Assembly (NCBI GenBank): GCA_021650915.1
Contig: CP091279.1
Location: 4,014,274 to 4,046,273, forward strand
DNA: 32,000 bases
DNA from: Candidatus Brocadia sp.
GTDB lineage: Bacteria > Planctomycetota > Brocadiia > Brocadiales > Brocadiaceae
Reading direction: 5' to 3'
Shown here: in pieces, positions 5,975 to 31,440 of the stretch
Position numbering within the stretch: the first letter of the stretch is position 1
Layout: each line of letters opens with the position of its first letter
Notes under the pieces: model-generated
Databases searched by the model: none
What the model was told of the DNA's origin: nothing
What the model saw: the letters and a program-made list of their open reading frames with translations, nothing else
Position numbers and translations under genes: made by a program

Positions 5975-7908
<1,934 letters not shown>

Positions 7909-10209: not shown

Positions 10210-13200
10210 ATGCCTCTTGATGGAGTCTGGCTCTCGGATGAACCCCTCTGGTACAAGGACGTCATTATCTATGAGCTTCACGTACGGGCATTTTACGACA
10301 GCAATGCCGATGGGATTGGAGATTTTGAGGGGCTTATAGAAAAACTGGATTATCTGGAGAATCTTGGCATAACAGCCATATGGCTTCTTCCTTTTTATCC
10401 ATCCCCCCTTAAAGATGATGGATATGATATCGCAAATTATTTTGGCATCCATCCTGATTATGGCTTATTGCGGGACTTTAAGGAGTTTATCAGGGAGGCG
10501 CACAGAAGGGGTATGCGGATTATTACCGAACTTGTTCTGAATCATACCTCAGAGCGGCATCCCTGGTTTCAGATGGCAAGAAAGGCAAAACCCGGTTCTG
10601 CATTGCGAAATTTTTATGTCTGGAGTGACACACCTGAAAAATATAAAGAGGCAAGGGTCATTTTCAAGGACTTCGAATTATCCAACTGGACGTGGGATCC
10701 TGAGACGAAGGCTTACTACTGGCACCGATTTTTCACCCATCAACCCGATTTGAATTATGACAACCCCTTGGTGCAGAAGAAAATCATGAGGGTTATTAAT
10801 TATTGGCTGGATATGGGCGTTGATGGATTTCGCCTGGATGCCGTGCCCTATCTTTTTGAAAGGGAAGGAACCAATTGTGAAAGTTTACCGGAGACCCACA
10901 GATTCTTAAAAGAACTCCGGGCATACCTGGATCGTAATTTTAAAAACCGGATGCTTCTTGCGGAGGCGAATCAGTGGCCTGAGGATGCGGTAACCTATTT
11001 TGGAAACGGAGACGAGTGTCACATGGCATTCCATTTTCCCCTTATGCCCAGGTTATTCATGGCAATCTGGACCGAGGACAGGTTTCCCATAATTGATATC
11101 CTTGAACAAACCCCCCCAATCCCAGACACGTGCCATTGGGCATTTTTTTTAAGAAACCACGATGAACTTACCCTGGAGATGGTAAGTGATGAAGAAAAAG
11201 ATTATATGTACCGGGTCTATGCGAAAGACCCTGTGGCAAGGATCAATCTCGGCATACGGAGACGGCTTGCCCCCCTTCTCGGAAATAACCGGCGAAAGGT
11301 GGAAATCATGAATATCCTGCTTTTCTCTCTCCCGGGCACTCCCATTGTTTATTACGGTGATGAAATTGGAATGGGAGATAATTACCATCTTGGCGACAGA
11401 AACGGCGTGAGAACACCTATGCAATGGAATGTCGACAGAAACGCTGGTTTTTCCCGCGCAAATCCCCAGAAACTCTATCTCCCTCTTATTATCGACCCGG
11501 AATATCATTACGAAGCCGTTAACGTTGAAAATCAGGAAAAGAATCAGGCTTCCCTGCTCTGGTGGATGCGCAGGGTCATCGCCATGAGAAAACGTTTTAA
11601 GGCATTTGGAAGAGGAACGACTGAATTCTTATTTCCCGACAACCCAAAAGTGCTGGCATTTATCCGGCAGTATCATAACGAGGTCATCCTTGTCATTATT
11701 AATCTCTCGCGTTTTTCACAAGCAGTTGAGCTTGATCTTTCAAAATTTTCCGGATTTCAGCCAGAAGACATCTTTAGCGGAAATAAATTCCCACCAATAA
11801 AGGATACCCCCTATCTCTTTACCCTAGGCCATTACGATTATTTCTGGTTTGTCCTGAAAAAAGAGGAGGAGACCGCACCGTTTCGCAAAATACGACACAT
11901 TCCTCATATCAGTGGAAACTGGAAAACCCTCTTTATGGGAAAAACGAAAGAACTGCTGGAAAGGGAAATCTTACCGCCTTATATGAAAATGTGCAGATAC
12001 TATGGCGGTAGAATACAGGAAATGCGGGAAATAAGAATTACCGAGACTATAAAAATCAAAGAAAATACCTGCGATGCACAGATGCTTATTCTTGAAATAA
12101 AATACCTTACGGGACTATCGGACACCTGTTTTCTTCCCCTTTCCTTTTCATCCGGCGATACGGCGGAAAGCGTCGTCATAGAAAATCCACATGCCGTTGT
12201 TGCACACTTGAAGAATGACAATGCCGAAGGAATCATTTATGATAGTATCTACGATGAAGGATTCCGGAGTTATCTGCTGCGGATGTTTGTCAGAAGACAT
12301 AGGCACCGCGGACTTCATGGCGAACTTATCACCACTACCGGGAAGACGATAAAAAAACGCAAAGAGGATGAACTCTTATCGTTGAAATCCCACGTTATTA
12401 AGGGAGAACAAAATAACTCGTCCCTCCTTTACGGCAAGGAACTCATTTGCAAACTTTACCGATGCCTTGATGAAGGGATAAATCCCGAACTGGAAATGTG
12501 TGAGTTCCTTACCGATAAGATTCCTTTTCGCCACGTCCCTCCGCTTTTGGGTGCAATCGAATACCGGCGGCACGGAGGTGAATTCCTAACGGTAGGCATG
12601 CTTCAGACCTTTGTCCCGAATGAAGGTGATGCGTGGACCTATACCCTTGACTGGATAGGAAGATACCTGGGCAGAATCCTTGCCAGAAAAAATGAACTTC
12701 AGGGAATATCCCCCGTTCCCCCTTCTTTTTTTGATCCTGCTCTTCAAGAGACACCCCTCCTATTTCAGGAATTGATCGGTGGTATATATCTTGAAATGGT
12801 ATCCCTGCTGGGCAAAAGGACTGCCGAACTTCATCTGGCGCTCGCATCGGAAACGGAGGACACAAATTTTGCGCCAGAGCCGTTCACCGCATCCTATCAA
12901 AGGTCACTCTATCAATCTATGCAGTCTCGCACAAAAAGGATTTTTGCGCTCCTTAGAAAAAACACGAAAAATATCCCTGATCATCTTAAGGGATTAACGA
13001 ACGACACCCTCAATCTTGAAAAGGAAATCATGAGTCGTTTCAAGGCCATTTGTACCCGGAAGATATCCGCGGCAAAGATAAGGATCCATGGGGATTATCA
13101 CCTGGGACAGGTACTCTTCACGGGAAATGATTTTGCCATTATCGACTTTGAAGGAGAACTTGCGCGAAACGTAAGTGAAAGAAGATTAAAGAGGTCGCCA

Positions 13201-13533
13201 TTACGAGATGTGGCAGGCATGATACGTTCCTTTCATTACGCCACCCATGCCACCCTTTTAAAATCTGCCCGCACGAATCCGGAAGAGACCCCGGCGCTGG
13301 AACCCTGGCTAGATTTATGGTACCGGTATGTGGGAGGCGTCTTTTTACGGTCATACCTTGAAACGGCTGGAAATGCATCTTTTATTCCAAAGAGCAGAGA
13401 AGATCTTGATATTATGCTCAGGGCATATCTCCTGGAAAAAGCTGTTTATGAGATTGGACATGAAATAAACAATCGTCCGGAATGGATTATGATACCCTGC
13501 AGGGGAATTAAGCATCTGCTTGAGACCAATTAA
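10210..13533 (+). CDS. treS: Trehalose synthase / maltokinase fusion (TreS-Mak/Pep2)
   Basis: The N-terminal GH13 TreS domain has WYKDVIIYELHVRAFYDSNADGIGDFEGL, GVDGFRLDAVPYL, LLAEANQWPED and FLRNHDELTLE. The C-terminal maltokinase domain has IHGDYHLGQVLFTGNDFAIIDFEGE. GGAGA lies upstream of the ATG. 1107 aa, typical of such fusions. Confidence 0.9.
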   Translation: MPLDGVWLSDEPLWYKDVIIYELHVRAFYDSNADGIGDFEGLIEKLDYLENLGITAIWLLPFYPSPLKDDGYDIANYFGIHPDYGLLRDFKEFIREAHRRGMRIITELVLNHTSERHPWFQMARKAKPGSALRNFYVWSDTPEKYKEARVIFKDFELSNWTWDPETKAYYWHRFFTHQPDLNYDNPLVQKKIMRVINYWLDMGVDGFRLDAVPYLFEREGTNCESLPETHRFLKELRAYLDRNFKNRMLLAEANQWPEDAVTYFGNGDECHMAFHFPLMPRLFMAIWTEDRFPIIDILEQTPPIPDTCHWAFFLRNHDELTLEMVSDEEKDYMYRVYAKDPVARINLGIRRRLAPLLGNNRRKVEIMNILLFSLPGTPIVYYGDEIGMGDNYHLGDRNGVRTPMQWNVDRNAGFSRANPQKLYLPLIIDPEYHYEAVNVENQEKNQASLLWWMRRVIAMRKRFKAFGRGTTEFLFPDNPKVLAFIRQYHNEVILVIINLSRFSQAVELDLSKFSGFQPEDIFSGNKFPPIKDTPYLFTLGHYDYFWFVLKKEEETAPFRKIRHIPHISGNWKTLFMGKTKELLEREILPPYMKMCRYYGGRIQEMREIRITETIKIKENTCDAQMLILEIKYLTGLSDTCFLPLSFSSGDTAESVVIENPHAVVAHLKNDNAEGIIYDSIYDEGFRSYLLRMFVRRHRHRGLHGELITTTGKTIKKRKEDELLSLKSHVIKGEQNNSSLLYGKELICKLYRCLDEGINPELEMCEFLTDKIPFRHVPPLLGAIEYRRHGGEFLTVGMLQTFVPNEGDAWTYTLDWIGRYLGRILARKNELQGISPVPPSFFDPALQETPLLFQELIGGIYLEMVSLLGKRTAELHLALASETEDTNFAPEPFTASYQRSLYQSMQSRTKRIFALLRKNTKNIPDHLKGLTNDTLNLEKEIMSRFKAICTRKISAAKIRIHGDYHLGQVLFTGNDFAIIDFEGELARNVSERRLKRSPLRDVAGMIRSFHYATHATLLKSARTNPEETPALEPWLDLWYRYVGGVFLRSYLETAGNASFIPKSREDLDIMLRAYLLEKAVYEIGHEINNRPEWIMIPCRGIKHLLETN

Positions 13534-13559
13534 ATCGTTTGAGATGAAAGAGAAAATCT

Positions 13560-15473
13560 ATGAATACCCTAAGCCTCTTTACGGATCACGATATCTATCT
13601 CTTCAAAGAAGGGAACCATTTTCAGCTTTACAACAAACTCGGCTCCCACAGGATTGCAACAAGAGGAACCACAGGCGTCTATTTCGCCGTGTGGGCGCCG
13701 AATGCGGAAAGGGTCTCGGTCACGGGTGATTTTAATCAATGGAATAAGGCGTCTCATCCGCTAACACCACGGAAAGACGAATCCGGTATCTGGGAAGGAT
13801 TCATTGAAGGCATTGAAAACGGGACGGCGTATAAATATCATATCACTTCCCGCTATCAAAACTATACGGCGGATAAAGGCGACCCATTCTCTCTGCGCTG
13901 GGAAACCCCTCCTAAAACTGCCTCTCTGGTATGGGATCTGAATTATGCATGGAATGACCGTGCATGGATGCATACCCGCCACAAAGCCAATTCATTGGAG
14001 GCTCCGTTTGCTATTTATGAAATCCATCTTGGTTCCTGGAGGCGAGTTCCTGAAGAAGGGAATAGATATCTCACCTATAAAGAGATGGCTCACCAGCTCG
14101 CTGATTATCTGAATGAACTGGGATTTACCCACGTTGAACTGCTACCGATTACCGAGCATCCCTTTTATGGTTCGTGGGGGTATCAGTCCGTGGGATACTT
14201 TGCGCCCACGAGCCGGTACGGAACTCCTCAGGATTTTATGTATTTCGTTGATTATCTGCATCAACGCGGAATCGGAGTTATTCTTGACTGGGTGCCTTCT
14301 CACTTTCCCGCGGATGAGTATGGTCTCGTCTATTTTGACGGCACACACCTCTATGAACACGCAGACCCAAAAAAGGGCTTTCATCCGGACTGGAAGAGCT
14401 ACATTTTTAATTATGGCAGAAATGAAGTAAGGAATTTTCTTATCAGCAGCGCCTTCTTTTGGCTTGATAAATACCATATAGACGGTCTCAGGGTAGATGC
14501 CGTGGCTTCGATGCTTTATCTCGACTACTCAAGAAAAGACGGGGAATGGATACCAAACCAATACGGAAGCAGAGAAAATTTAGAGGCAATAGCCTTTATA
14601 AAAAGATTTAACGAGGCCGTCTATGAAACCTACCCGGACGTTCAAACGATTGCTGAAGAATCAACCGCATGGCCTATGGTGTCTAAACCAACCTATGTCG
14701 GCGGCCTCGGATTTGGTATGAAATGGAACATGGGTTGGATGCACGATACCCTGGCATTTTTTACCAAAGACCCGCTCTACCGAAAGTACCACAACAATCA
14801 ACTTACCTTTAGCATCATGTACGCATTCTCCGAAAACTTCGTCCTCCCCTTTTCCCATGATGAAGTTGTCCACGGGAAAGGGTCTTTGGTGGGAAAAATG
14901 CCGGGTGACGAGTGGCAGCGGTGCGCGAATCTCAGGCTCCTCTTTGGATATCTGTACGGACATCCAGGGAAAAAACTTCTTTTTATGGGAGATGAATTTG
15001 CACAGGTAAAGGAATGGCACCATGATGAGAGCCTGGAATGGCACGTGTTACAATACCCCTTTCACGCGGGCGTTCAAAGATGGGTCAGGGATTTGAATCA
15101 TCTTTACAGAAGCAAGCCGGCCTTGTACGAACGGGATTTTTGTTTCGACGGGTTCGAGTGGATAGACTTTCATGATTGGGAATGCAACGTTATCAGCTTC
15201 ATAAGAAAGGGAAATGCTGCGGATGATGTCATTCTTGTGATAAGCAACTTTACCCCCATACTGCGGCATAATTATCGCGTGGGCGTCCCGCTGGGTGGCT
15301 ATTGGAAAGAGGCATTAAACAGCGATGCAACTATCTATGGGGGTGGCGGACAGGGAAATTGTGGTGGAGCGGATGCGTCACCGGTACCGGCGCACGGAAG
15401 AGCCCATTCCCTTTCTCTTACCCTCCCTCCCCTGGGAATCCTCTTCCTGAAGTATGAAGGCAGAACTCGCTGA
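13560..15473 (+). CDS. glgB: 1,4-alpha-glucan branching enzyme
   Basis: [42 protein letters not shown] and [12 protein letters not shown]. Confidence 0.92.
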
Positions 15474-17947
15474 TGGACAGATATATCTGCATTCACGGAC
15501 ATTTCTATCAACCACCGCGTGAAAATCCCTGGCTGGAGGCTATCGAATTACAGGATTCCGCCTTGCCATACCATGACTGGAACGAGAGGATAACCTCAGA
15601 ATGTTATTCCCGCAATGCGGCATCCCGGATTTTGGACGGTGACGGACGCATCAAAGAAATCGTCAGTAATTACACCCGAATAAGCTTTAATTTCGGCCCT
15701 ACCCTCCTTTCCTGGATGGAGAAATATGCCCCAGGCATATACCAGGCCATACTCGATGCAGACAGAAAAAGCAGGGAGTGGCGTTCCGGTCATGGAAACG
15801 CAATTGCGCAGGTTTACAATCATATCATCATGCCCCTTGCCAATACCCGTGATAAACGCACCCAGATCATCTGGGGAATCAGGGATTTTGAGCACCGGTT
15901 TCAGCGCTTTCCTGAAGGCATGTGGCTTTCGGAAACGGCAGTCGACCTGGAAACACTGGATATTATGGCTGAGCAAGGCATACAGTTCACCCTCCTCTCA
16001 CCCCATCAGGCATTGCGGGTAAGAAAAATAGGCTCGGAAAAGTGGAAAGACGTAAGTGGCGGGCGCATTGACCCTACAAGAGGGTACCTCTGTAAACTGC
16101 CGTCAGGGAGGGCAATATATATTTTTTTTTACGATGGCCCCATATCTCGGGCGATAGCATTTGAAAAATTGCTGAACGGAGGAGAGCATTTTGCCCATCG
16201 GTTGTTAAGCGGTTTCTCAGATACGCGAAAATGGCCTCAAATCCTTCATGTTGCCACCGACGGAGAGTCGTATGGTCATCACCACCGGCATGGAGATATG
16301 TCCCTTGCCTTTGCCCTTCATTATATCGAGTCCCGGGGGCTGGCGCGGCTGACAAATTACGGAGAATACCTCGAAAAAAACCCCCCAGTGCATGAAGTTG
16401 AAGTCCTCAGTAATTCCTCCTGGAGTTGTGTCCACGGCATAGAGCGGTGGAAAGGCAACTGTGGATGCAATTCTGGCGGGCATCCCGAATGGAACCAGGA
16501 ATGGCGCACCCCAATCCGCAACGCCTTTGACTGGCTGAGAGATCAGATGGTGATAAAATACGAACAAAAGGCAAAAAAATATCTGAAAGACCCCTGGCGG
16601 GCAAGAGATGAATATATCACCCTTCTCCTGAACCGCTCAGCGGATCAGGTACACCAATATTTTGAACGGCACACGGTGAACGCCCTCGGCACAGAAGAAA
16701 TCATTTGCATGCTTGAATTGCTCGAAATCCAAAGAAACGCACTGCTGATGTATACCAGTTGCGGCTGGTTTTTTGATGAGCTTTCAGGGATTGAAACTCT
16801 GCAGACCATCCAATACGCCGGAAGGGCAATTCAACTGTCAGAAAAAATATTTGGTTACAGCATAGAAAATACCTTTTTGGAAAAACTTTCACAGGCAAAA
16901 AGCAATATCGCTGAACAGAAAGACGGCGCGCATCTTTATGAAAAATTCGTTAAGCCAGCCATGATCGACACCAAAAAGGTCGGGGTGCACTATGCCGTGA
17001 GCTCGATTTTCGAAGATTACCCGGAACGCACCAGAATTTACTGCTTTACGGTTACCAGAGAGGATTATCATCGGGAAGAGGCCGGGAGAATAAAGATTGC
17101 CGTGGGGCGGGTTTCCATCAGGTCTGAAATAATCAAAGAAACCGAACGTTTAAGCTTCTGTGTTTTGCATCTCGGCAATCATGATTTTAGCGGAGGCGTA
17201 TGTGCTTTTCCCGGAGACGATGCGTATCAGTCAATGAGAGACGAGATGATGGCGTCCTTTGAAAAGGGAGCCTTTGCCGTCATGGTAAGACTGATGGATA
17301 AACATTTTGGCATGCACAACTATTCACTCAAACATCTTTTCAAAGATGAACAACGAAAGATCGTACATCAGGTCATCCGATCAACCATTGATGAATTTGA
17401 AGAGACCTATCGCAGTATGTATGAGAACAATCGCATCCTGATGAGGTTTCTGCAGGAGACAGGTATGCCCATACCAAGCGTTTTTCGCACCGCCGCTGAG
17501 TTTACCCTGAACCAGGATTTAAAAAAAGCATGTGCAGAAGAAAAGGGTCTTAACAGGATACAGGGCATTCTGCATGACATGAAAAAATGGGATATCCCCG
17601 TGGACGCCTTAGATCACGAATTCGCACTTCGACGACTAATCGAGGCGTTAATGGATGAATTGCAGGAGAGGCCATCTGATTTTTCCCTGCTTCAAAGGAT
17701 AGAGCGAAAACTGCATCTCTTCCTTGCGTTACCTTTCGAGATCAATCTCTGGCACGTGCAAAATGTTTATTACGAGATGGCAAAGACCATCTATAAAACA
17801 TTTCTGCCCAAGGCAAAATACGGCGACCCAGATACCGTTCGTTGGATAGAATTGTTTAAACAGATTGGGTACAAATTGTTCTTCAATGTGCCGGCTATGC
17901 TGCCTGACGCCTCAGACGAACATTTCCATGCACGGGGAACTGAATGA
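15473..17947 (+). CDS. Glycoside hydrolase family 57 protein with long C-terminal extension (DUF3536-like)
   Basis: ICIHGHFYQPPRENPW, GMWLSETAVD (nucleophile Glu region) and HVATDGESYGHH (acid/base Asp region). Its ATG overlaps the glgB TGA (TGATG). Confidence 0.85.
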   Translation: MDRYICIHGHFYQPPRENPWLEAIELQDSALPYHDWNERITSECYSRNAASRILDGDGRIKEIVSNYTRISFNFGPTLLSWMEKYAPGIYQAILDADRKSREWRSGHGNAIAQVYNHIIMPLANTRDKRTQIIWGIRDFEHRFQRFPEGMWLSETAVDLETLDIMAEQGIQFTLLSPHQALRVRKIGSEKWKDVSGGRIDPTRGYLCKLPSGRAIYIFFYDGPISRAIAFEKLLNGGEHFAHRLLSGFSDTRKWPQILHVATDGESYGHHHRHGDMSLAFALHYIESRGLARLTNYGEYLEKNPPVHEVEVLSNSSWSCVHGIERWKGNCGCNSGGHPEWNQEWRTPIRNAFDWLRDQMVIKYEQKAKKYLKDPWRARDEYITLLLNRSADQVHQYFERHTVNALGTEEIICMLELLEIQRNALLMYTSCGWFFDELSGIETLQTIQYAGRAIQLSEKIFGYSIENTFLEKLSQAKSNIAEQKDGAHLYEKFVKPAMIDTKKVGVHYAVSSIFEDYPERTRIYCFTVTREDYHREEAGRIKIAVGRVSIRSEIIKETERLSFCVLHLGNHDFSGGVCAFPGDDAYQSMRDEMMASFEKGAFAVMVRLMDKHFGMHNYSLKHLFKDEQRKIVHQVIRSTIDEFEETYRSMYENNRILMRFLQETGMPIPSVFRTAAEFTLNQDLKKACAEEKGLNRIQGILHDMKKWDIPVDALDHEFALRRLIEALMDELQERPSDFSLLQRIERKLHLFLALPFEINLWHVQNVYYEMAKTIYKTFLPKAKYGDPDTVRWIELFKQIGYKLFFNVPAMLPDASDEHFHARGTE

Positions 17948-19440
17948 ACAGAAGGAGCGGCATATTACTTCATATTACCTCCCTTTCGGCTCCCCACGGT
18001 GTGGGAGATTTCGGTGAAACAGCTTACCAATTTGTCGACTTTCTTGCCGAAACCAGGCAGTCTTTGTGGCAAATCCTCCCTTTAAATCCCACCTCCATCG
18101 TATACGGAAACAGCCCTTATAGCTCTAATTCAGCCTTTGCGGGAAATCATACCTTGATAAGCCTTGATCTCCTGATCCAGGACGGTATCCTCTCAAAATC
18201 TGATATGAAAGATCAGCCAACCTTTCTTCATGATTTGGTTGACTATGATATCGTTACTCCCTTTAAAGAGAAAATGCTTCGGGTAGCATACCACAATGTT
18301 CGCCACACGCTGGAAAAGAATGGGGAATTTGAGAAGTTTTGTGCCGAAAATGCCCACTGGCTTGAGGACTATACCCTGTTTGTAGCCCTGAAAGAGAACT
18401 TTCATGGCGTTGCCTGGTATGACTGGCCTGAAGGCTTACGGCACAGGAGAGAGGACGTCCTGCAAGACCGGAGAAATAGCCTGCGCGACAGAATACTGAT
18501 GGAAAAGTTTTTCCAATTCCTCTTTTTCCGGCAGTGGTTTTCTCTGAAAAAATACTGCAACTCAAAGAACATACAGATCATCGGTGATATTCCTATCTAT
18601 GTAACCGACGACAGCGCCGATGTATGGGCGAAACCTGAGATCTTTAAACTGGATGATACCAGCAAACCTCTGTACATCGCAGGAGTTCCGCCTGATTATT
18701 TCAGCGCCACAGGACAACGATGGGGAAACCCGGTTTATAACTGGGGTATCCTCAAAGATACGGGATACTCGTGGTGGCTGAGGCGCATCGAATATAACCT
18801 GAAACTGTATGATATTATCAGACTCGACCACTTCAGAGGTTTCGTTTCCTACTGGGAAATTCCGGCCGGTGAAAAGACCGCAATCAACGGGAAGTGGGTG
18901 GATGCACCGGTAAAGGACTTCTTTAATATCCTGTACCGGCATTTCCCAAGCCTTCCCATTATTGCCGAAGACCTGGGGACGATAACACCTGACGTAAGAG
19001 AAATTATGAGTATGTTTGGAATTCCGGGCATGAAGGTGCTCCTCTTTGCCTTTGGAGACGATTTGCCGGTCAATCCGTATATCCCCCATAACCACACGCC
19101 ATCCTGTATTGTGTACACGGGAACCCACGATAACAACACGGTGAAAGGCTGGTTTAAACAAGATGCAACCACGGAAGACAAAAAAAGAATGCACAGATAC
19201 CTGGGAAGGGAAGTTACTGAAGACACGATTCATCGCGAAATGATCCGGCTGGCGATGATGTCTGTCGCAACGATGGTGGTAATGCCCATGCAGGATGTGC
19301 TTGGTCTGGGAGAGGAATCGAGGATGAACCTGCCTTCAACTTCCAAAAACAATTGGAGGTGGCGGCTCTCACCGGAACACCTTACCCCTGCTCTCAAACA
19401 AGAGCTAACGGAAACAACGACCATCTACGGCAGGGGATGA
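17944..19440 (+). CDS. malQ: 4-alpha-glucanotransferase (amylomaltase, GH77)
   Basis: GILLHITSL, IIGDIPIYV, RLDHFRGF, IIAEDLG and YTGTHDNNT. Its ATG overlaps the GH57 stop (ATGA). Confidence 0.92.
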   Translation: MNRRSGILLHITSLSAPHGVGDFGETAYQFVDFLAETRQSLWQILPLNPTSIVYGNSPYSSNSAFAGNHTLISLDLLIQDGILSKSDMKDQPTFLHDLVDYDIVTPFKEKMLRVAYHNVRHTLEKNGEFEKFCAENAHWLEDYTLFVALKENFHGVAWYDWPEGLRHRREDVLQDRRNSLRDRILMEKFFQFLFFRQWFSLKKYCNSKNIQIIGDIPIYVTDDSADVWAKPEIFKLDDTSKPLYIAGVPPDYFSATGQRWGNPVYNWGILKDTGYSWWLRRIEYNLKLYDIIRLDHFRGFVSYWEIPAGEKTAINGKWVDAPVKDFFNILYRHFPSLPIIAEDLGTITPDVREIMSMFGIPGMKVLLFAFGDDLPVNPYIPHNHTPSCIVYTGTHDNNTVKGWFKQDATTEDKKRMHRYLGREVTEDTIHREMIRLAMMSVATMVVMPMQDVLGLGEESRMNLPSTSKNNWRWRLSPEHLTPALKQELTETTTIYGRG

Positions 19441-19942: not shown

Positions 19943-20049
19943 TATTAATCGTCTCATAATAGAACACACATTAAGCTGTCCGTTTAGCGCTTCAATACTG
20001 GAGAAGGAAAGCATACGACGAATCAATACAATTATGAGACCCTTAATAA
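19943..20049. repeat. 107-bp direct repeat, copy 1 (left border of the catalase island)
   Basis: 106/107 identical to 23270-23376. It carries internal terminal inverted repeats: GTCTCATAAT at 19951-19960 versus ATTATGAGAC near its right end. Weaker similarity extends about 16 bp to the left. Confidence 0.9.
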
Positions 20050-20109: not shown

Positions 20110-21381
20110 TTAGTCGGAATCCTTATCTTTCTGACCGGCCGGGAACAACAGGCTCCTGAACCTCAGGGCGCCAAATCCAAAACCAGCTATCAGTCCGATC
20201 ACGGCACACGTAGTTATGAGTCTTACAGAGCTGAGATTCAGCCCAAAGATGGCGTTTGCCCAGGATGTCAAAAGAAAGAGAGCTGCAAACGCTGCTGTGG
20301 TGACTAGCCCCGAGTAGACTCCGAAGTCCTTCTTTGTTGGTCGAGCCAGACGTTCCAGGTTCCTGACCTGGTTAGCGACCTGCTCGGTGAAGCGCACCAT
20401 CGCTGTCGCCTGTGGCCCAGCCTTCGCAAGCGTTTCGCCCGCGAGATGGATCTTGTTTCGGAGCGTGCTTAATCCTGGAAGCGCCGTTGTAAAGCTGGAG
20501 TCGAAGACCTTTTTCATAATACGCGCAAGCTCCGGTATGGCTTCCAAAAACTGACTTACCCCCGTAGCCAATACCGATGCGATTCGAACCGGTTCAGACA
20601 TCCCCTCTACTTGACGCAACAGATCTGAGGCGCTCCTTGCATTGGCGTTAACCTCTGCAGCGTTGGCGACTATCCGATCGTATTCGAACTGGTTACTATC
20701 GCTGATCGAACGGAAAAAGTCGTAGAACGCTCGGTAAAGATGGGCATAACCTCTAAATGCAAGACGCTCAGGCCGGCCTTCGGTGTAGTAAACATCGGCA
20801 ACGTTGTTGGCTGCTTTCGATGCTTCCTCAATCAGTGTTCGACCCGTCGCAAGATCGAGCTGCTGCAGCGCCAGCAGTGATGCAATCAGCAGCATCTCGG
20901 GTTTCATGTGGTCGACAAGCGGTTTGTATTTGCTGCTAAACGTCCCCGCTTTGTTAAGATAGACCTCTACCGCTTGCAGACGATCAAACGCCCGCGTAAT
21001 ATTCATCGCCCTAACGTCTAGCACACTTTGTGCGTACGCTCCCAGGCCGACAGAGATATCACGCGCATGCGTTTGCCCAAGTTGATCGAACCCCGATGCG
21101 GCTCGATCCAGCAGATCAACGGCCACCACGAAGTCACCTCCCCGAAAGGCGACGTTCACCGCTTGGGCAAAATACCACACTGACTGGAGAGCCGCTTTCA
21201 GCGCATCGCGATCCTCTGTGGCTTTGACATGGTCCAGTTCCTGTAGCTTCTCCTCGGCGAAGGTCTGTAAGGTGTCAGGATCGGTGTCAAACGCGGCGTT
21301 CAGAGCATCGTCAATGAGTGCTTGCGCGGACTTGGAAACTACGCTGATCTCTCCTGGCTTTCCGTGGTTATTTTCAGACAT
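20110..21381 (-). CDS. Hypothetical helical protein with C-terminal two-TM hairpin (unknown family)
   Basis: GC-rich ORF. ATG 21381 is preceded by GAGGAGG 6 nt upstream; the ORF track's GTG 21420 is less likely. The C-terminal hydrophobic segments are VYSGLVTTAAFAALFLLTSWANAIFG and LITTCAVIGLIAGFGFGALRF. I recognise no motif. Confidence 0.65.
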   Translation of the reverse strand: MSENNHGKPGEISVVSKSAQALIDDALNAAFDTDPDTLQTFAEEKLQELDHVKATEDRDALKAALQSVWYFAQAVNVAFRGGDFVVAVDLLDRAASGFDQLGQTHARDISVGLGAYAQSVLDVRAMNITRAFDRLQAVEVYLNKAGTFSSKYKPLVDHMKPEMLLIASLLALQQLDLATGRTLIEEASKAANNVADVYYTEGRPERLAFRGYAHLYRAFYDFFRSISDSNQFEYDRIVANAAEVNANARSASDLLRQVEGMSEPVRIASVLATGVSQFLEAIPELARIMKKVFDSSFTTALPGLSTLRNKIHLAGETLAKAGPQATAMVRFTEQVANQVRNLERLARPTKKDFGVYSGLVTTAAFAALFLLTSWANAIFGLNLSSVRLITTCAVIGLIAGFGFGALRFRSLLFPAGQKDKDSD

Positions 21382-21659
21382 CTTGTCCTCCTCGTTGTAA
21401 AAATAGAACTTCTGTTTCACCTCTGCTGCAACCGCCTTCCGTACCGACTCGCTCTGACGTCCGGCTAATTCCCGGCATCAGCGGCGCTGAGCGCCGTCCG
21501 TTACAACCAGTTAGTTGTCTCGGATTTTGAAAACGGTAGCGCCAATCCCTTATGGTCGGCCTGTGCGGGGGATAAACCACCCGCGCTACGTATTTTGCTT
21601 CATGCCGATTGTATAGAAAGGTACAAATTTTTCAAAAAACTACCTTGTTATCCTGTCTC

Positions 21660-23114
21660 TTATTTCTTTATCTCACTCATCGGAATGCCCATCGCCTTGG
21701 CAAGGCCCTCGCCGTAAGCCAGATCGGCTTTGAGACAATTACCAATGTGGCGAACCTTGATCTCCTTGGGCACGTTACCCATGGCACGGGCGGTGTTATC
21801 GAAGAGCGTCTGTTTCTGCGTGTCGTTTATCAGGCGGAAGAGGCGTCCCGGCTGGGTATAGTGGTCGTCATCTTGCGGGTAGCGGTCCGCGGCGCCATCA
21901 AGGGCTAGAGGCGGTTCGCGTAAATCAGGGTTGTCTTGCCATTCATTGTAGCTGTTGGGATCGTAGCCAGGCGTTCCGCCCTGATTGCCGTCGACCCGCA
22001 TCGCTCCGTCGCGGTGGTACATGTTTACCGGGCAACGCGGACGGTTGACGGGGATCTGGTGGTGGTTGACACCAAGGCGGTAGCGCTGAGCATCGCCATA
22101 GGAAAAGAGTCGTCCCTGTAGCATCTTGTCCGGAGAAAAGCCTATGCCTGGGACCACATTGGCAGGGTTAAAGGCCGACTGTTCGACTTCGGCAAAATAG
22201 TTCTCCGGGTTCTTATTGAGCTCGAGAATGCCAACTTCGAGGAGCGGGTAGTCCTTGTGGTACCAGACCTTGGTCAGGTCAAAGGGATTGTACGGCATCT
22301 TGGCGGCGTCTTTTTCATGCATAACCTGGATGAACAGCTTCCATCGCGGAAATTCGCAACGCTCAATCGTCTCGTAGAGATCACGCTGGTGACTCTCGCG
22401 ATCTTTGCCGATGACTGCCTCCGCTTCTGCGTCGCTAAGGTTCTTGATGCCCTGCTGAGTGTGGAAGTGGAACTTCACCCAAAAGCGCTCGTTCCTCGCG
22501 TTGATAAGGCTGAACGTGTGGCTCCCGAACATGTGCATGTGCCGATAGCTTGTCGGAATGCCGCGGTCGCTCATCGTGATAGTGATCTGGTGTAATGCCT
22601 CGGGCAGCGACGTCCAGAAATCCCAGTTGTTCTTAGCGCTACGAAGATTGGTGCGGGGATCGCGCTTCACCGCATGGTTGAGACCAGGGAAACGTAGCGG
22701 ATCGCGCAGAAAGAAAACCGGGGTGTTATTACCAACGAGATCCCAGTTGCCCTCCTCGGTGTAGAACTTGATCGCCGTGCCACGGATATCGCGCTCGGCG
22801 TCAGCCGCGCCGCGTTCGCCGGCTACCGTTGAGAAGCGTAGGAAAAGGTCTGTCCTCTTGCCAATCTGCGAGAATATTTTCGCCCTGGTGTACTTGGTGA
22901 TGTCGCAGGTCACCGTAAAGATGCCATAGGCGCCTGAGCCCTTGGCGTGCATGCGGCGTTCGGAAATCACCTCGCGATCGAAGTGTGCGAGCTTCTCGAG
23001 AAACCAAACATCCTGAAGCAACTGTGGTCCTCGCGGCCCAGCAGTCATCACATTTTGGTTGTCTGCCACGGGCGCCCCGGCGGCGGTTGTCAGTTTCTTC
23101 TTTTCGTCATTCAC
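21660..23114 (-). CDS. katA: Monofunctional heme catalase (small-subunit, clade 3, KatA-like)
   Basis: [58 protein letters not shown] and [17 protein letters not shown] 23114 is preceded by AAGGAG, giving a typical 484 aa. The longer track ORF from 23207 lacks an SD. Confidence 0.9.
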
Positions 23115-23224
23115 TTTTATTCTCCTTTTGCAGTTTGATTGTACAGCTAACGTTTGAGCACAACGGCGGCCCGTCTGAGCCGTCCGCTGGAACGAATTGT
23201 TGGACATCTATCCGCTACAAAGGA

Positions 23225-23392
23225 CTAGTGTGCAGACATATTAATTACAAATTATATATTGTGGGCAATTATTAATCGTCTCATAATAGAACACACATTA
23301 AGCTGTCCGTTTAGCGCTTCAATATTGGAGAAGGAAAGCATACGACGAATCAATACAATTATGAGACCCTTAATAATATGTCTGTATACTAG
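23225..23392. mobile_element. 168-bp MITE containing 107-bp repeat copy 2 (23270-23376)
   Basis: Terminal inverted repeats CTAGTGTGCAGACATATTAATTA (23225-23247) versus the reverse complement of TAATAATATGTCTGTATACTAG (23371-23392), 20/23 matching. Both ends begin and end with CTAG. No ORF. Confidence 0.7.
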
Positions 23393-23588: not shown

Positions 23589-24114
23589 ATGAAGCTTATC
23601 ACAGAGACTCACGCGGAGCATATTCGAGGCACTCTTTCATGCTATGACCGTATCATTATTCAAGGCACCTTGCCCCCTTTTTGTCATGCAAAGGGTATGA
23701 CATCATTTCTGTATGGGGAAAAAAATCCGTATCTTTGACTACCCGCAATTTGCTCAAGGCTTGCGGGACGAATTGATTGCGCACGCCAAAAAGATCGCCA
23801 GCGAGAATAACCTGAGTATCCAATATCTCCCGAAAAAGAACTTTCGCCAGGAAGAATGTATTGCAGAAGTCCTGAAAAGACACGGCACCCATCCTGGTCT
23901 TGTCCACATCTTTTCAGTACAAGAATCCTGTGCCTCCTATACTCCATGGCACGACAAGAATACCCACAAGACTTTTCTCAAATACGATCCCAGTGGGAGA
24001 TGCCTTCACTATTATTTCTATTTTATTCATGAAATTTTAGGCCTGTGTTATGTCCGTGTGCCAACATGGATTCCTTTTCGTCTTCAAGTCTATTTTAACG
24101 GTCATAACTGGTTA
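23589..24114 (+). pseudogene. Conserved hypothetical gene, frameshifted and 3'-truncated
   Basis: MKLITETHAEHIRGTLSCYDRIIIQGTLPPFCHAKGMTSFLYG runs in one frame, then KKIRIFDYPQFAQGLRDE...LCYVRVPTWIPFRLQVYFNGHNWL continues in frame +1. The switch is at the G4A7 run 23715-23725. Protein-like sequence ends at about 24114, where the CAGAAAGGG repeat begins. Confidence 0.55.
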
Positions 24115-24150
24115 GGGGAACAGAAAGGGTCACCCAGGAACAGAAAGGGG

Positions 24151-24309
24151 TCAAATCTTTATTGTTGACAAATCTATCTCAACTCTTTGGATCATCTGGG
24201 AAAGATGCTTGTTGCCATTCAGTCTTTCCCGTAATCGTTTTCGTCCCACACTCACGGTACTATAGTCTACCCCCATTATTTCCCCTATCTCAGTTCCGCT
24301 GAGTCCGCC
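24151..24309 (-). pseudogene. 3' remnant of an HTH-containing, mobile-element-associated ORF
   Basis: It encodes GGLSGTEIGEIMGVDYSTVSVGRKRLRERLNGNKHLSQMIQRVEIDLSTIKI*, an HTH of DnaA-C / sigma70-region-4 style. There is no N-terminal part. About 90% identical over its shared part to 26522-26626. The stop lies inside the repeat motif. Confidence 0.55.
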
Positions 24310-24372
24310 AAGAACAGAAGGGGTCAAATCTTTATGAAGCTCAGCGGAATAGCGGGCAGGTGGAGCGCCTTG

Positions 24373-24630
24373 TTAGACAATATTTGATTCATATTGATAG
24401 ACAGGAACCTGAATAATTTTTGTTGGTTTCTTTTCCTCTTGTAGAAGCTGATCAATGGCCTTAGCTACTGCTGGTTTTATCACTTTTTCTCCACACTGTG
24501 TACAAACACCCACAGGAACATTCTCAAAAATGAATAACTTTCCCTTCCATCTAATTTCACGATGCGTGAGTTGTTCCGCGACAGCCCCCCCGCAATAGAA
24601 ACAATCACTGTATTTATATTCCTTTACCAT
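24373..24630 (-). CDS. YgiT-type zinc-finger protein (MqsA-N-like putative antitoxin)
   Basis: CFYCGG...(x27)...CTQCGE zinc ribbon with the VPVGVC pattern. GGAGA lies 10 nt upstream. Located immediately downstream of the DUF4258 gene. Confidence 0.75.
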   Translation of the reverse strand: MVKEYKYSDCFYCGGAVAEQLTHREIRWKGKLFIFENVPVGVCTQCGEKVIKPAVAKAIDQLLQEEKKPTKIIQVPVYQYESNIV

Positions 24631-24672
24631 AGGTCAATGTCTCCATTATCGATTTCTTGTGTATGGAGCTCT

Positions 24673-24960
24673 CTATTTTGGCATAGTTGGGATATAAACG
24701 GTAACGAGAATCAAATGTCCAGAAGGACTCTTCCCACAAACAACATGAACTGGTATTCCATCATGGGTAAATCCAACTGTCAGACAACTTTCACCACGAG
24801 GGTCATTTGGATATTGTTCTAATATTTTACCCTGTGATAAAGCAAATTCCAATTCAGAAATGGTTAAACCATCTGCAATTCGTTCGTCATCTGCGTGAAG
24901 TGATATTTCATAGGTCTGCTTTTCAATTCCATTGCGAATAAAATCAGGTGCTATACTCAT
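24673..24960 (-). CDS. DUF4258-family putative toxin
   Basis: ISLHADDERIADGLTISELEFALSQGKILEQYPNDPRGESCLTVGFTHDGIPVHVVCG....LILVTVY matches the DUF4258 pattern (H....R...R.I........L..G.I.E.YP.D.......L......G.P.HVV). Confidence 0.7.
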   Translation of the reverse strand: MSIAPDFIRNGIEKQTYEISLHADDERIADGLTISELEFALSQGKILEQYPNDPRGESCLTVGFTHDGIPVHVVCGKSPSGHLILVTVYIPTMPK

Positions 24961-24980
24961 TCCGATCTATTTCAATGTTG

Positions 24981-25343
<363 letters not shown>

Positions 25344-25423
25344 AGGTTATTTTATCATTTCATCATTTTTAGTCGAACGATAGAACTGCGCGGCGGCGGA
25401 ACGCCATCCGCACGAGTGACTTG

Positions 25424-25762
25424 TTATGCCCCTATTATCTCATTCAGTCCGTCAACTACCTGTTCCATTTCCTCAGGAGAAACCCTTCCGATTATTTTTC
25501 CAATTCTCTCAACGGAAAGCGTCCGAATCTGGCTTATTTTTGCCCATGACCGTTTGGGTAAATTTGTGGTTTTTAATTCAAGGGTGAGGGGAAATCCCGC
25601 CTTCTGAGGCTGACTGGTTAGAGCTACGGCAATAACTGTCCCTGATCGTTCATTGAATATATCCTGGCTTAAAATTAAAACAGGCCGTAAGCCTGCTTGC
25701 TCACGGCCACGTACGGGGTTTAAATCAGCCCATCTAATGTCGCCCCTCAGTATTCGGGCCAT
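25424..25762 (-). CDS. mazF: MazF/PemK-family endoribonuclease toxin
   Basis: RGDIRWADLNPVRGREQAGLRPVLILSQDIFNERSGTVIAVALTS is the canonical PemK/MazF N-terminal pattern. Confidence 0.88.
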   Translation of the reverse strand: MARILRGDIRWADLNPVRGREQAGLRPVLILSQDIFNERSGTVIAVALTSQPQKAGFPLTLELKTTNLPKRSWAKISQIRTLSVERIGKIIGRVSPEEMEQVVDGLNEIIGA

Positions 25763-25989
25763 TGGTTCAAATCCTCAGTTAAACCTTCCTCCGCCATTGC
25801 TTTTTCAAAGGGTATGTCGAGCTTGGCGCATTCTTTAGCCAAACGAGTGCGTTTAAGACGTTTCAGTTTCTCTTCTACTGCTTCCTGTATTGCCTGACTG
25901 CGGTTTTGAAAAACATGCTCACTAACGAGCCTATCTATGTCTTCAATAAATTGTTCGTCTAATGTAATGGCAATTTTTGTTTTTCTCAT
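25747..25989 (-). CDS. Ribbon-helix-helix (CopG/MazE-like) antitoxin
   Basis: MRKTKIAITLDEQFIEDIDRLVSEHVFQNRSQAIQEAVEEKL has the ribbon-helix-helix (RHH) signature. It overlaps mazF by 16 nt. Confidence 0.8.
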   Translation of the reverse strand: MRKTKIAITLDEQFIEDIDRLVSEHVFQNRSQAIQEAVEEKLKRLKRTRLAKECAKLDIPFEKAMAEEGLTEDLNQWPEY

Positions 25990-27262: not shown

Positions 27263-30200
27263 CTACACAGGAGACCACGCTGCCTGATGTTTGAGTAATT
27301 TCCATCTCCTCTGAATTTCTGCTTCCGCCTGCTTCATAAGCGCTGCAGCGACTTCAGGATTGCTTGCCTTTAACGCCCGGTAGCGATTTTCCTTGTAGGC
27401 ATATTCTTCAAAGGAAACGGACGGGTCCTTGCTGTCAAGCACCAGCGGATTCTTCCCCTGGGCTTCAAGCTGCGGATTGTACCGGTACAGCGGCCAATAA
27501 CCGCTGGCAACCGCCTTTTTCTGCTGCTCTATGCCCCTGCTCATATCAAAGCCATGGGCAATACATACGGAGTAGGCAACAATGAGCGCCGGCCCGTTGT
27601 ATGCCTCTGCCTCCGTAATCGCCCTGACCGTCTGCGCGAGATTCGCCCCAAACGCCACCTGGGCAACATATACCTTGCCATAGGTAGCCATCATCAAAGC
27701 GATATTTTTCTTCGGCGTCCTCTTCCCACCCGCAGCAAACTGCGCAATCGCACCCAGCGGGGTCGCCTTGGACATCTGCCCGCCGGTATTCGAATAAACC
27801 TCGGTGTCCATAATGAGGAGCTTTATGTTTTCACCCGACGCCAGGACGTGGTCAACCCCACCATACCCGATATCATAACCCCACCCGTCACCGCCAATCG
27901 ACCATACCGATTTCTTCACCAGATAATCTGCAAGGGAGAGGAGACTCTTTGCATCGGATGAGGCGTCCTTTGACAACCTCTTTTTCAGTTCTTCTACACG
28001 CACCCTCTGTTTATCAATCCCTTCCTGGTCAGACTGGTCGGCATTTTTCAATGACTCAAAAAGTTCCTTTGCATCCGCATATGCAGGCGTCTTTGCCAGC
28101 TTATCCAGTAACTCTCCTGCCTGTAAGTAAAATTTATCCACGGTCAGCCGCATGCCAAGACCAAATTCTGCCGTATCCTCAAAGAGGGAGTTCGACCATG
28201 CAGGACCGCGCCCGTCAGCCCGTTTGGTATAGGGAGTGGTTGGCAAATTTCCACCGTAGATGGACGAACACCCGGTGGCATTGGCAATAATCAAACGGTC
28301 GCCAAACAACTGGGTAAGCAATTTAATATACGGAGTCTCTCCGCACCCCGCACAGGCGCTGTGATACTCAATGAGCGGCTTTACAAACTGGCTCCCTTTC
28401 ACGGAATTCACGTTAAACCTTGCAGGATCCGTTTCGGGAAGATCGAGGAAGAACTGGTAATTCTCTGCTTCCGCCTGACGAAGCGGCTCCTGAAGCTTCA
28501 TATTAATGGCCTTGACACCAGGTATCTTGTTCCCCTGCGCATCCTTCTTCTGACCAGGACAGTTGAATACACACGAACCGCATCCGGTGCAATCTTCCGG
28601 CGCTACCTGGACGGTAAACCTCAGCCCCGTCAGTTCTTTTCCCGTTGCGTCAACCGATTTGAAATTTTGGGGCGCATCCTTTAACAATGCAGGATCATAC
28701 GCCTTTATCCGGATCGTTGCGTGAGGACAGACAAATGAGCACTGGCCGCACTGAATGCAGGCATCAGGCTCCCATTCGGGGATATGTACCCCGATGTTCC
28801 TCTTTTCATACTGGGTCGTCCCGGTAGGCCAGGTGCCATCTGCGGGGATCGCGGAAACGGGCAGATAATCACCCTTGTTGGCAATCATCTTTGCCGTCAC
28901 CTTTTTTACAAATTCCGGCGCATCTTCGGGCACCGGCGGCCTCATACGGACATTGCTGGTGACCTTGCCCGGCACCTTTACCTCGACAATATTCTGGAGC
29001 GCCTTGTCCACTGAGGCGTAGTTCATCTTCACCACGTCCTCGCCCTTTTTGATATACGTCTTTTTCAGCTCCGCCTTGATTGCCTCAATGGCTTCTTCCT
29101 TGGGAATAATGCCAGAAATAACAAAGAAGGCGGTCTGCATGATGGTGTTAATCCTTGTCCCCAGCCCGATCTCCTCGGCCAGGGAAATGGCGTCAATAAT
29201 ATAGAATTTCATCTTTTTGGCAATGAGATGCTCCTGCACTTCTACCGGCAGGCTGTCCCAGATCTCGTCCTTATTTTTTGAAGTCGTCAGAAGAAACGTT
29301 GCCCCTTCCTCCGCATTGGACAGCATATCGAATTTTTCAAGAAACGAGGGATTATGGCAGGCGATGAAATTTGCCTTCGAGACCAGGTAGGGGTTGAGTA
29401 TCTTATCTTTCCCAAAGCGCAGGTGGGATACCGTTGTTGACCCCGACTTTTTTGAGTCATACACAAAGTATCCTTGAGCATAATTATCCGTTTCAGAGCC
29501 GATAATCTTGATCGTGTTCTTATTTGCGCCAACCGTGCCATCCGCCCCCAACCCGTAAAACAACGCCCGGTACGCCTCTTTCCCCTCTATCGTAAAGGAT
29601 TCGTCGTACGCGAGGCTGGTGCCCGTGACATCGTCGTTGATACCAATCGTAAAGTGGTTCTTTGGTTTCCCCTGTGCAATATTGTCAAACACAGCCTTCA
29701 CCATTGCGGGGGTAAAATCCTTTGAGCCAAGCCCGTAACGGCCGCCAACCACGACCGGATAATTCTTGAATTTTGTCGTGCCCTTATCCATGGCCTCACC
29801 AATGGCGGTCCTCACATCGAGATACAAAGGCTCACCAATAGCGCCGGGCTCCTTGGTGCGATCAAGGACGGCAATTGCCTTTACACTTGCAGGTAAACTA
29901 TCAGCAAAGGCGGCAACATCAAATGGCCGAAAAAGCCTTACCTGGAGCAGCCCCAGTTTTTCGCCCTTCGCATTGAGTGCCTGAATGGTATTGAACACCG
30001 TCTCTCCGGCTGAGCCCATAACGATAATAATGCGTTCAGCATTGGGTGCGCCGGAGTAATCAAAGAGTTTATATTGACGACCAGCAACCTTCGCAAAGGC
30101 ATCCATCGCCTTCTGCACGATGGCAGGGGTTGCCGCATAATATTTATTCACCGTTTCCCTTCCCTGAAAGTATACATCCGGGTTTTGTGATGTGCCGCGG

Positions 30201-30844: not shown

Positions 30845-31440
30845 ACATTCTCCTTGTTGGTCTTGGTGTTGGGAAAAAATATAATGCAGAAAAACTACAA
30901 CCAAATCCCTAGAAAAAGGGGGATTCCAGGGGTAAAATACTTGCCAAAACAGAAGCTTTTACACGGTAATACGATAACTACGGAAGACACGAGGTTCTTT
31001 CAATTCAGGGATTTACAATTTCAGATACATGATTTTCCTCATCTCAAATTGTAATTTATAGATTCATTCCTTATTTTTCCCTGTGCCTCTGTGCCCCTGC
31101 GGTAAGTATAAATAATATGCAAGTAGCATACACTATTTTTCTCATTTTGTCGAGGAAATGTATTGCCTTGATGTCACCATTTTGAGATGGATTGTCTCAA
31201 TGGCATGCATTTCCAGTTTGAAATACAACATAGATATTTATACCTCATGGTACTTGGATAAAGCTTCGGCTGACATACTGTATTGAATAACTTTTTTGGA
31301 AAAACCAGACTCATTTTACATGCCGTAGCATGATTGCCAAAACGGGCACTTAATCGGTACGTCAGCTAATTTTACCAATGAAAACCAGACCATCGTACCA
31401 CGTAAAAGTTCGTTCACCAGAAACAGAGAGTAAACTTTCA

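Follow-up and report, generated by a model that had tools for sequence, protein, structure and literature searches.

What is the role of a gene for a membrane protein of no catalogued family that lies next to a catalase gene? The question is raised by a stretch of 32,000 nucleotides of Candidatus Brocadia sp. (contig CP091279.1, positions 4,014,274 to 4,046,273; this whole stretch is called the window, and its own numbering is used below), in which a gene on the minus strand encodes a protein of 423 amino acids (aa). A first-pass annotation of the window had preferred to see in this protein a partner of the adjacent catalase, and had named an unrelated membrane-acting cargo gene as its second option. 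The evidence assembled here favors the latter. The gene belongs to a rare family in which one helical domain is joined to many alternative parts, of which a membrane hairpin is one, and it is, on computational grounds, a well-supported candidate for a new one-gene conflict system.

20110-21381, minus strand: complete coding sequence of the 423-aa protein including the stop codon, from the list of open reading frames (ORFs) and the sequence, its start fixed by an alignment of 10 homologs
21387-21393, minus strand: Shine-Dalgarno sequence GAGGAGG, read from the upstream sequence, with a 5-nt spacer to the ATG at 21381

The ORF is a real gene and not a chance frame, since it is conserved over its full length, at 30-50% identity, in no fewer than 22 independent loci spread over several phyla. 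An alternative, longer call exists: both the mechanical ORF and the database call (P0001) have 436 aa and begin at a GTG at 21420, 13 codons earlier. The 423-aa call is probably the better one, P0001 being 13 codons too long, because 10 homologs begin their alignment at the ATG at 21381 (MSENN, MPEDK, MNEQ...) and because the position of the Shine-Dalgarno sequence favors the same codon. The coordinates and the strong ribosome-binding signal given in the first-pass annotation are confirmed. In composition the protein is dominated by alanine (14.4%) and leucine (11.3%) and is rich in V, S, D and R.

A constant helical domain with exchangeable fused parts

A profile search of 1.84 billion representatives recovered 227 relatives of the protein, 106 of them at E ≤ 1e-30. 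Architectures were analyzed for the best 150 of the 227; the profile was split into helical domain and tail, the extra regions were clustered and their representatives were scanned. The architecture of the window protein, a helical domain followed by a hairpin of two transmembrane (TM) helices with a GFGFG motif, is the commonest form and is found in about 65 of these 150 relatives. Many of the others match profile positions ~13-348 only and carry a different fused module:

EAD11 adaptor: 25 representatives (best Pfam evidence P0056, E 8.8e-14)
TIR-like part with an HhH tail: 8 representatives (weak PF10137)
CyanoTRADDas_TM two-TM module, in the same slot as the hairpin: 5 representatives (P0061, E 8.4e-9)
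CAP12/Pycsar-type TIR (PF10137): 2 representatives (P0050, E 3.8e-37)
DUF900-like alpha/beta-hydrolase: 2 representatives (weak, under the Pfam cutoff)
N-terminal CHAT: 2 representatives (P0146, 26.1 bits, cutoff 24)
N-terminal Trypsin_2: 1 representative (P0055, E 1.7e-9)
TIR_2 with helical domain and EAD11: 1 representative (P0117, E 3.5e-23)
DpnII/MboI-type restriction endonuclease (REase): 1 representative (P0125, E 4e-33)
Tandem AAA+ ATPases with helical domain and EAD11: 2 representatives (P0139, P0149)

The two-TM hairpin starts directly after a junction of the form NLERLxxPxKKDFG, which is where the TIR, REase or hydrolase starts in the paralogs. Judged from these alignments, the helical domain (~340 aa) is the constant part of the family and the two-TM tail is one of at least 10 alternative partners. 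PADLOC matched the fused parts only, to PDC-S35, the CBASS TIR effector, PycTIR, the REase of the pAgo-associated Helical-REase, DRT RT-Protease and IetA; the helical domain itself was never recognized. Swapping of effectors in this manner is the hallmark of prokaryotic conflict systems. The first-pass annotation had missed these fusions to TIR, nuclease, protease, hydrolase and EAD11 modules altogether.

The two-TM tail was also considered as an independently mobile module, an idea that gained no support, as no tail was found outside homologs of the whole protein. P0160 (94 aa), taken as a stand-alone tail, proved to be the miscalled start of an ORF of ~390 aa: at locus L033 (about 5090-6285) the frame is open upstream of the call and encodes a divergent family member of that length. 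The subgroup of P0152, taken as the same tail on a different N-terminus, turned out to be remotely homologous to the whole protein and collinear with it (hhalign 99.5%, E 2.5e-23).

Predicted structure and membrane topology

The protein can be divided into the following parts, all on the minus strand:

20338-21381, minus strand: residues 1-348, predicted cytoplasmic TPR-like alpha-solenoid (AlphaFold2 helices H17-H346), the constant module of the family
20146-20337, minus strand: residues 349-412, KKDFG junction and predicted two-TM hairpin with LIxGFGFGA (hydropathy, charge distribution and invariant columns)
about 20248-20316, minus strand: predicted TM1, residues about 356-378 (hydropathy, Kyte-Doolittle >1.5)
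about 20161-20223, minus strand: predicted TM2, residues about 387-407 (hydropathy, Kyte-Doolittle >1.5)
20110-20145, minus strand: residues 413-423, short charged tail (QKDKDSD) and stop codon (15% mean identity, low model confidence)

Two AlphaFold2 models, one built from 11 sequences (predicted local distance difference test, pLDDT, 82.9) and one from 88 sequences (pLDDT 93.2, predicted template modeling score 0.85, 17 helices), are both entirely helical, the helix count over the two being 16-17. A conserved NLERLxxP motif terminates the helical domain at residue 348, and the modeled helices H350-379 and H385-412 coincide with the only two hydrophobic segments of the protein. The models, the hydropathy profile and the QKDKDSD tail bear out the earlier description of an all-helical protein with a C-terminal hairpin and a charged tail.

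Direct assignment to a family was attempted and rejected, as the searches of Pfam, NCBIfam, PADLOC, PHROGs and the sequences in the PDB all ended without a significant match. The Pfam scan at E ≤ 1 returned only a meaningless match to Sif; the two-TM modules CyanoTRADDas_TM and SLATT were not matched at that threshold, and Pfam found neither a member of the TPR clan nor ankyrin (Ank) repeats. For the PDB sequences, neither phmmer nor the 88-sequence profile gave a significant match. In the divergent member P0152, matches to TPR_2 and TPR_19 were sub-threshold only. Foldseek likewise gave no match at E ≤ 0.001, either against the PDB with both models or against BFVD. Its top matches are TPR-type solenoids, namely kinesin light chain, LGN, SNAP and the Rap/NprR peptide receptors, with probabilities of 0.97-1.00 but with E ≥ 8e-3, TM-scores ≤ 0.34 and root mean square deviations of 11-20 Å, also for the model with pLDDT 93. 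In these models, the soluble domain is a TPR-like array of helical hairpins with a geometry of its own that is not assignable to the TPR family. The protein therefore was rightly called unrecognizable, no family library having matched it. The accompanying remark that it has no ankyrin or TPR consensus is correct for the sequence as read by Pfam, but the TPR-like alpha-solenoid that appears in three dimensions had gone unnoticed.

Lysine and arginine are unevenly distributed around the hairpin, with five before TM1, none in the 8-residue loop and three after TM2, so the helical domain and both ends of the protein should be cytoplasmic (N-in/C-in). In a set of 45 representatives of the two-TM type, the mean pairwise identity of the hairpin module is 42.6%, versus 25.5% for the helical domain. 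Within the hairpin, the LIxGFGFGA motif is near-invariant and its G-F-G-F-G-A columns are invariant. Because the hairpin is better conserved than the helical domain and its motif hardly varies, its conservation argues against a mere anchor and for a specific packing of helices in the membrane. In the helical domain, conservation falls mostly on A, G, Y and N, that is, on small or aromatic packing residues, and no conserved catalytic constellation was found there; since the conserved residues are of this type, the domain fits a predicted role as a binding scaffold.

Homolog loci and the catalase question

Homolog loci were collected by looking up contigs and by scanning genomes and metagenomes; the statements on neighbors refer to the 22 independent ones, whose flanking sequence amounts to 206 kb. 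The family is small: a word-indexed search of 5.8 billion proteins gave only 12 clusters at 90% identity, all of about 420 aa and 33-50% identical. Its hosts include Terriglobia, Dehalococcoidia, Anaerolineae, Planctomycetota, Acidobacteriaceae, Desulfobacterales and one Thermoplasmata archaeon. The gene family is accessory, horizontally spread, very rare and phyletically patchy.

With the catalase of the window as query, tblastn over all homolog loci found no catalase near any of the 22, and a linkage of the two genes was rejected. The partnership that the first-pass annotation had preferred, and had proposed to check by the co-occurrence of homologs with catalases, is largely refuted by this synteny. 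No other gene takes the place of the catalase as a constant companion either. No neighbor or partner gene is conserved in the 22 loci, and an all-against-all ORF comparison of 25 loci produced nothing but antisense shadow ORFs and, for L029, L030 and L031, synteny at the level of a lineage. An adjacent nucleoside triphosphatase (NTPase) switch of the MoxR-vWA, STAND or GTPase kind is not conserved in the 22 loci, the neighbors scanned with Pfam being housekeeping enzymes. PADLOC and Pfam found no nucleotide-sensing domain in the 423-aa protein, and no cyclase or CD-NTase is conserved as a neighbor. No EAD11 partner was found beside the EAD11 variants at the loci examined; a large gene at L018 was considered as the NTPase partner of EAD11 and was rejected, as it encodes a PKD/Ig-repeat protein.

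A few loci deserve individual mention. In the metagenome contig L003 (2853-7870), the homolog lies between a gene for a patatin-like phospholipase of 795 aa and one for a DUF3800 protein, the most defense-island-like context encountered, and at L009 a BrnT-like toxin gene follows the homolog. In a metagenome-assembled genome of Anaerolineae (JBBPZQ010000151.1, L001 9251-12573), the homolog P0009 is situated inside a cell-division operon, minC-X-minD-minE, separated from the adjoining genes by 21 and 44 nt; mreBCD and PBP2 lie upstream of it and rodA downstream. The arrangement reflects either an insertion into the operon or a lineage-specific functional link. At L017 (1-3049), a variant with a CAP12/Pycsar-type TIR stands alone between a gene of the Omp85 family and a POTRA-domain gene.

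Proposed function and alternatives

On balance, we are slightly inclined to regard the 423-aa protein as a solitary, single-chain combination of sensor and membrane effector that serves in an immune or abortive-infection conflict system, because the family consists of a constant module with swappable parts and the fused parts match established defense effectors. The same view is favored by the slot of the hairpin, which TIR, REase or hydrolase fill in paralogs, by the high conservation of the hairpin, by the published precedents for such a slot, by the patchy distribution of the gene without conserved neighbors, and by the lack of a catalytic constellation in the helical domain. The cytoplasmic TPR-like alpha-solenoid of ~340 aa would be the constant sensing or regulatory scaffold. 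A trigger, perhaps a protein or peptide derived from an invader, would bind the solenoid and cause the protein to oligomerize. The output module would be the C-terminal hairpin of two helices, which bears the glycine-rich LIxGFGFGA motif, and the hairpins may then damage or permeabilize the inner membrane, so that the infected cell is stopped. A more far-reaching version can be put forward tentatively and with some doubt: the solenoid may define an uncatalogued family of single-chain immune receptors that directly sense an invader ligand and drive the fused output. The window protein would then be the prevalent, pore- or lesion-forming version, with a glycine-zipper-like two-TM effector (LIxGFGFGA), providing one-gene abortive infection in bacteria and some archaea.

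Several observations weigh against a conflict-system function. Genes of the two-TM type lie mostly outside recognizable defense islands, among largely housekeeping neighbors that include a GFO oxidoreductase, RNase PH, ComEC, radical-SAM enzymes, an acyl-CoA dehydrogenase and minC/minD. Suggestive, defense-like neighbors occur in three loci only, which are the window with its toxin-antitoxin genes, L009 with its BrnT-like toxin, and L003 with patatin and DUF3800. The TIR and EAD11 variants are likewise solitary among housekeeping genes. No relatives were found in the viral contigs of IMG/VR, in GenBank phages or in PLSDB plasmids, and no unrelated N-terminal domain was found to carry the two-TM tail, a profile search with the tail only having given nothing but fragments. 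The sensing role of the solenoid is an assumption, and the proteins that combine the helical domain with EAD11 could, by the EAD principle, be recruited partners instead of sensors. It is also possible that the hairpin merely anchors a scaffold to the membrane.

Alternatively, the protein could be the effector of a multi-component system encoded elsewhere, in which the helical domain would act as an autoinhibitory or recruitment module and an NTPase or sensor acting in trans would activate the two-TM part. EAD11 is indeed present on the 25 representatives listed above, it is also found on proteins with an LRR+AP-GTPase+COR core (Kaur et al., PMC8195603), and in two members tandem AAA+ ATPases are joined to the helical domain and EAD11. 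However, the window protein and all members of the two-TM type lack any EAD adaptor, no partner gene is conserved nearby, none for EAD11 adjoins the EAD11 variants examined, and the direct fusions of helical domain and effector need no third party. We consider such activation in trans unlikely.

Another possibility, which we judge somewhat less likely still, is a scaffold or adaptor that is anchored in the membrane and serves the normal physiology of the cell envelope or of cell division, in which the hairpin would only tether a TPR-like protein-binding platform. The placement within the min operon of the Anaerolineae genome, near mreBCD, PBP2 and rodA, would be expected of such a protein, as would the mostly housekeeping neighbors at the other loci, the absence of the gene from phages and plasmids, and a fold class that is that of protein-binding TPR scaffolds. 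But the min context is confined to one lineage and no neighbor is conserved in the 22 loci, the family is very rare and phyletically patchy, the parts fused to the helical domain (TIR, REase, trypsin, CHAT, EAD11) are not housekeeping partners, and no part of the protein is better conserved than the hairpin. That the protein is a membrane accessory of the catalase, for heme or peroxide handling or for tethering, is very improbable: the gene lies on the same strand, 278 nt 3′ of the catalase gene and with no terminator-like site found between them, and both genes share one GC-rich block between 99%-identical repeats resembling miniature inverted-repeat transposable elements (MITEs), but none of the 22 loci has a catalase, a promoter-like site separates the two genes, the architectures of the paralogs (TIR, REase, protease, EAD11) are unrelated to peroxide metabolism, and the catalase itself is complete and ordinary, having both a Catalase and a Catalase-rel domain.

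If the protein does act in conflict as a single-chain sensor and effector, it would represent a compact one-gene immune module with a sensing domain outside Pfam, NCBIfam, PADLOC, PHROGs and the PDB, and its hairpin would add a new membrane-effector motif to the catalogue. The family would also offer a natural series in which a single scaffold carries exchanged effectors (two-TM hairpins of two kinds, TIRs of three kinds, one nuclease, two proteases, one hydrolase and EAD11), suited to asking how a TPR-like sensor is coupled to very different outputs.

Comparison with known systems

The combination of a constant module with variable effector modules has been described as a general principle of conflict systems (PMC7159879). 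In one example (Kaur, Iyer, Burroughs and Aravind, eLife 2021, PMC8195603), a constant core of TPR, GreA/B-C and PIN is joined either to EAD10 or to one of 13 effectors. The present family resembles this core in having a constant, rapidly evolving helical-repeat region joined to an EAD or to one of many effectors, such as REase, TIR and trypsin. In contrast to it, the family has no GreA/B-C or PIN by Pfam, its variable module is mostly C-terminal, its constant domain is another solenoid of ~340 aa outside the Pfam models, and its commonest output is a membrane hairpin. Prokaryotic LRR+AP-GTPase+COR (Roco-like) proteins end in TIR, EAD8, EAD11 or TM+TM (PMC8195603, figure 6 source data). TIR, EAD11 or two TM helices thus alternate in one C-terminal slot there as they do in the family of the window protein, which differs in having no LRR and, except for the two AAA+ fusions, no NTPase switch, and in that its sensor-like part is a TPR-like solenoid. 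With EAD-type conflict systems generally, the family shares a constant module and a highly variable set of effectors and adaptors (at least 10 fused modules), whereas the window protein has neither an EAD adaptor nor an adjacent NTPase switch. In the literature consulted, which includes PMC7159879 and PMC8195603, the organizing principle is described, and neither the helical domain nor the two-TM module was found; they may be described elsewhere. What is already known is the principle of a constant module with variable effectors, while none of the libraries searched contains the constant domain or the GFGFG two-TM module.

The solenoid receptors and scaffolds of the TPR type that headed the structural matches (kinesin light chain, LGN, SNAP and Rap/NprR) are likewise arrays of antiparallel helical hairpins. 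The low TM-scores and the missing Foldseek, Pfam TPR and PDB profile matches, however, point to a distinct global geometry for the domain in the window protein.

Effectors of the Pycsar and CBASS systems (PycTIR and PycTM, Cap12-type TIR, Cap14 and Cap15) couple one ligand-sensing module to either a TIR NADase or a membrane-disrupting TM module. The TIR variants of the present family carry the CAP12/Pycsar-type TIR itself (PF10137, E 3.8e-37; PADLOC PycTIR and CBASS TIR effector), but the window protein lacks a cyclic-nucleotide-binding or SAVED domain, has no cyclase next to it and was not matched by PADLOC. The precedent named in the first-pass annotation is katB-ankB of Pseudomonas aeruginosa, where the gene for a membrane-associated helical-repeat protein lies immediately 3′ of a catalase gene. 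The gene for a membrane-associated helical protein lies 3′ of a catalase gene in the window as well; the protein, however, has no ankyrin repeats, and none of the other homolog loci has a catalase.

The MITE-bracketed island and its surroundings

How, then, did the two genes come to be neighbors? The following features of the window bear on this question:

21660-23207, minus strand: catalase gene, 515 aa (Pfam Catalase, E 1.6e-187, and Catalase-rel), 278 nt upstream of the 423-aa gene
21608-21635, minus strand: putative sigma-70-like promoter, TTGAAA-16-TACAAT, just 3′ of the catalase stop codon (10/12, a consensus match only)
19943-20049, plus strand: left copy of a MITE-like element of 107 nt, with terminal inverted repeats of ~18 nt and a TA at either side, ending 60 nt past the stop codon of the 423-aa gene
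23270-23376, plus strand: right copy of the 107-nt MITE-like element (99% identity, direct orientation), 62 nt upstream of the ATG of the catalase gene

The 107-nt element is present in exactly two copies in the 32-kb window, and these bracket precisely the 423-aa gene and the catalase gene. The 3.2-kb block between them is the GC maximum of the window, with 54.1% versus 42-47% in the flanks, a value reached by 0.2% of windows of the same size. These two features support the co-transfer with the catalase that the first-pass annotation had suspected, and the two genes probably arrived together as a MITE-bracketed block, which does not mean that they work together. Arrival en bloc is plausible, whether as a composite between two MITEs or through recombination at a copy that was already resident; TA flanks each copy individually, a pattern that does not discriminate a composite insertion, and with the copy number known within the window only, two independent MITE insertions are a possible alternative. 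The locus may serve as a warning for annotation, in that a single adjacency can mislead on function and the link with the catalase appears to be an accident of the MITE-bracketed block.

The sigma-70-like match could be the 423-aa gene's own promoter. Because there is this match in the 278-nt spacer and no terminator-like site was found there on the minus strand, both read-through from the catalase gene and independent transcription appear possible from the sequence. The spacer RNA (minus strand, 21382-21665; 278 nt) is predicted to have a more stable fold (-88 kcal/mol, z = -2.9) than its shuffled controls and has no Rfam match; Rfam families and tRNAs were found nowhere in the window.

To the right of the island, a 151-aa ORF without Pfam match (23713-24168) lies just beyond the right MITE copy, and AAGGGGTCAAATCTTTAT, an exact direct repeat of 18 nt, is found at 24145 and again at 24318 (window 24145-24335). 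The ORF and the repeat region may be the remnant of a mobile element. A toxin-antitoxin-like cluster (24373-25989) adjoins the island on this side, in which a DUF4258 protein (24673-24960) is accompanied by a zinc-ribbon partner (24373-24630) and a MazF/PemK toxin (25424-25762) by a ribbon-helix-helix antitoxin (25747-25989). A PFOR gene (27263-30904) is also located to the right of the island. Directly to its left, a plus-strand glycogen/trehalose cluster (10210-19440) encodes a TreS-maltokinase fusion (1107 aa), GlgB, a GH57 + DUF3536 protein and the 4-alpha-glucanotransferase MalQ.

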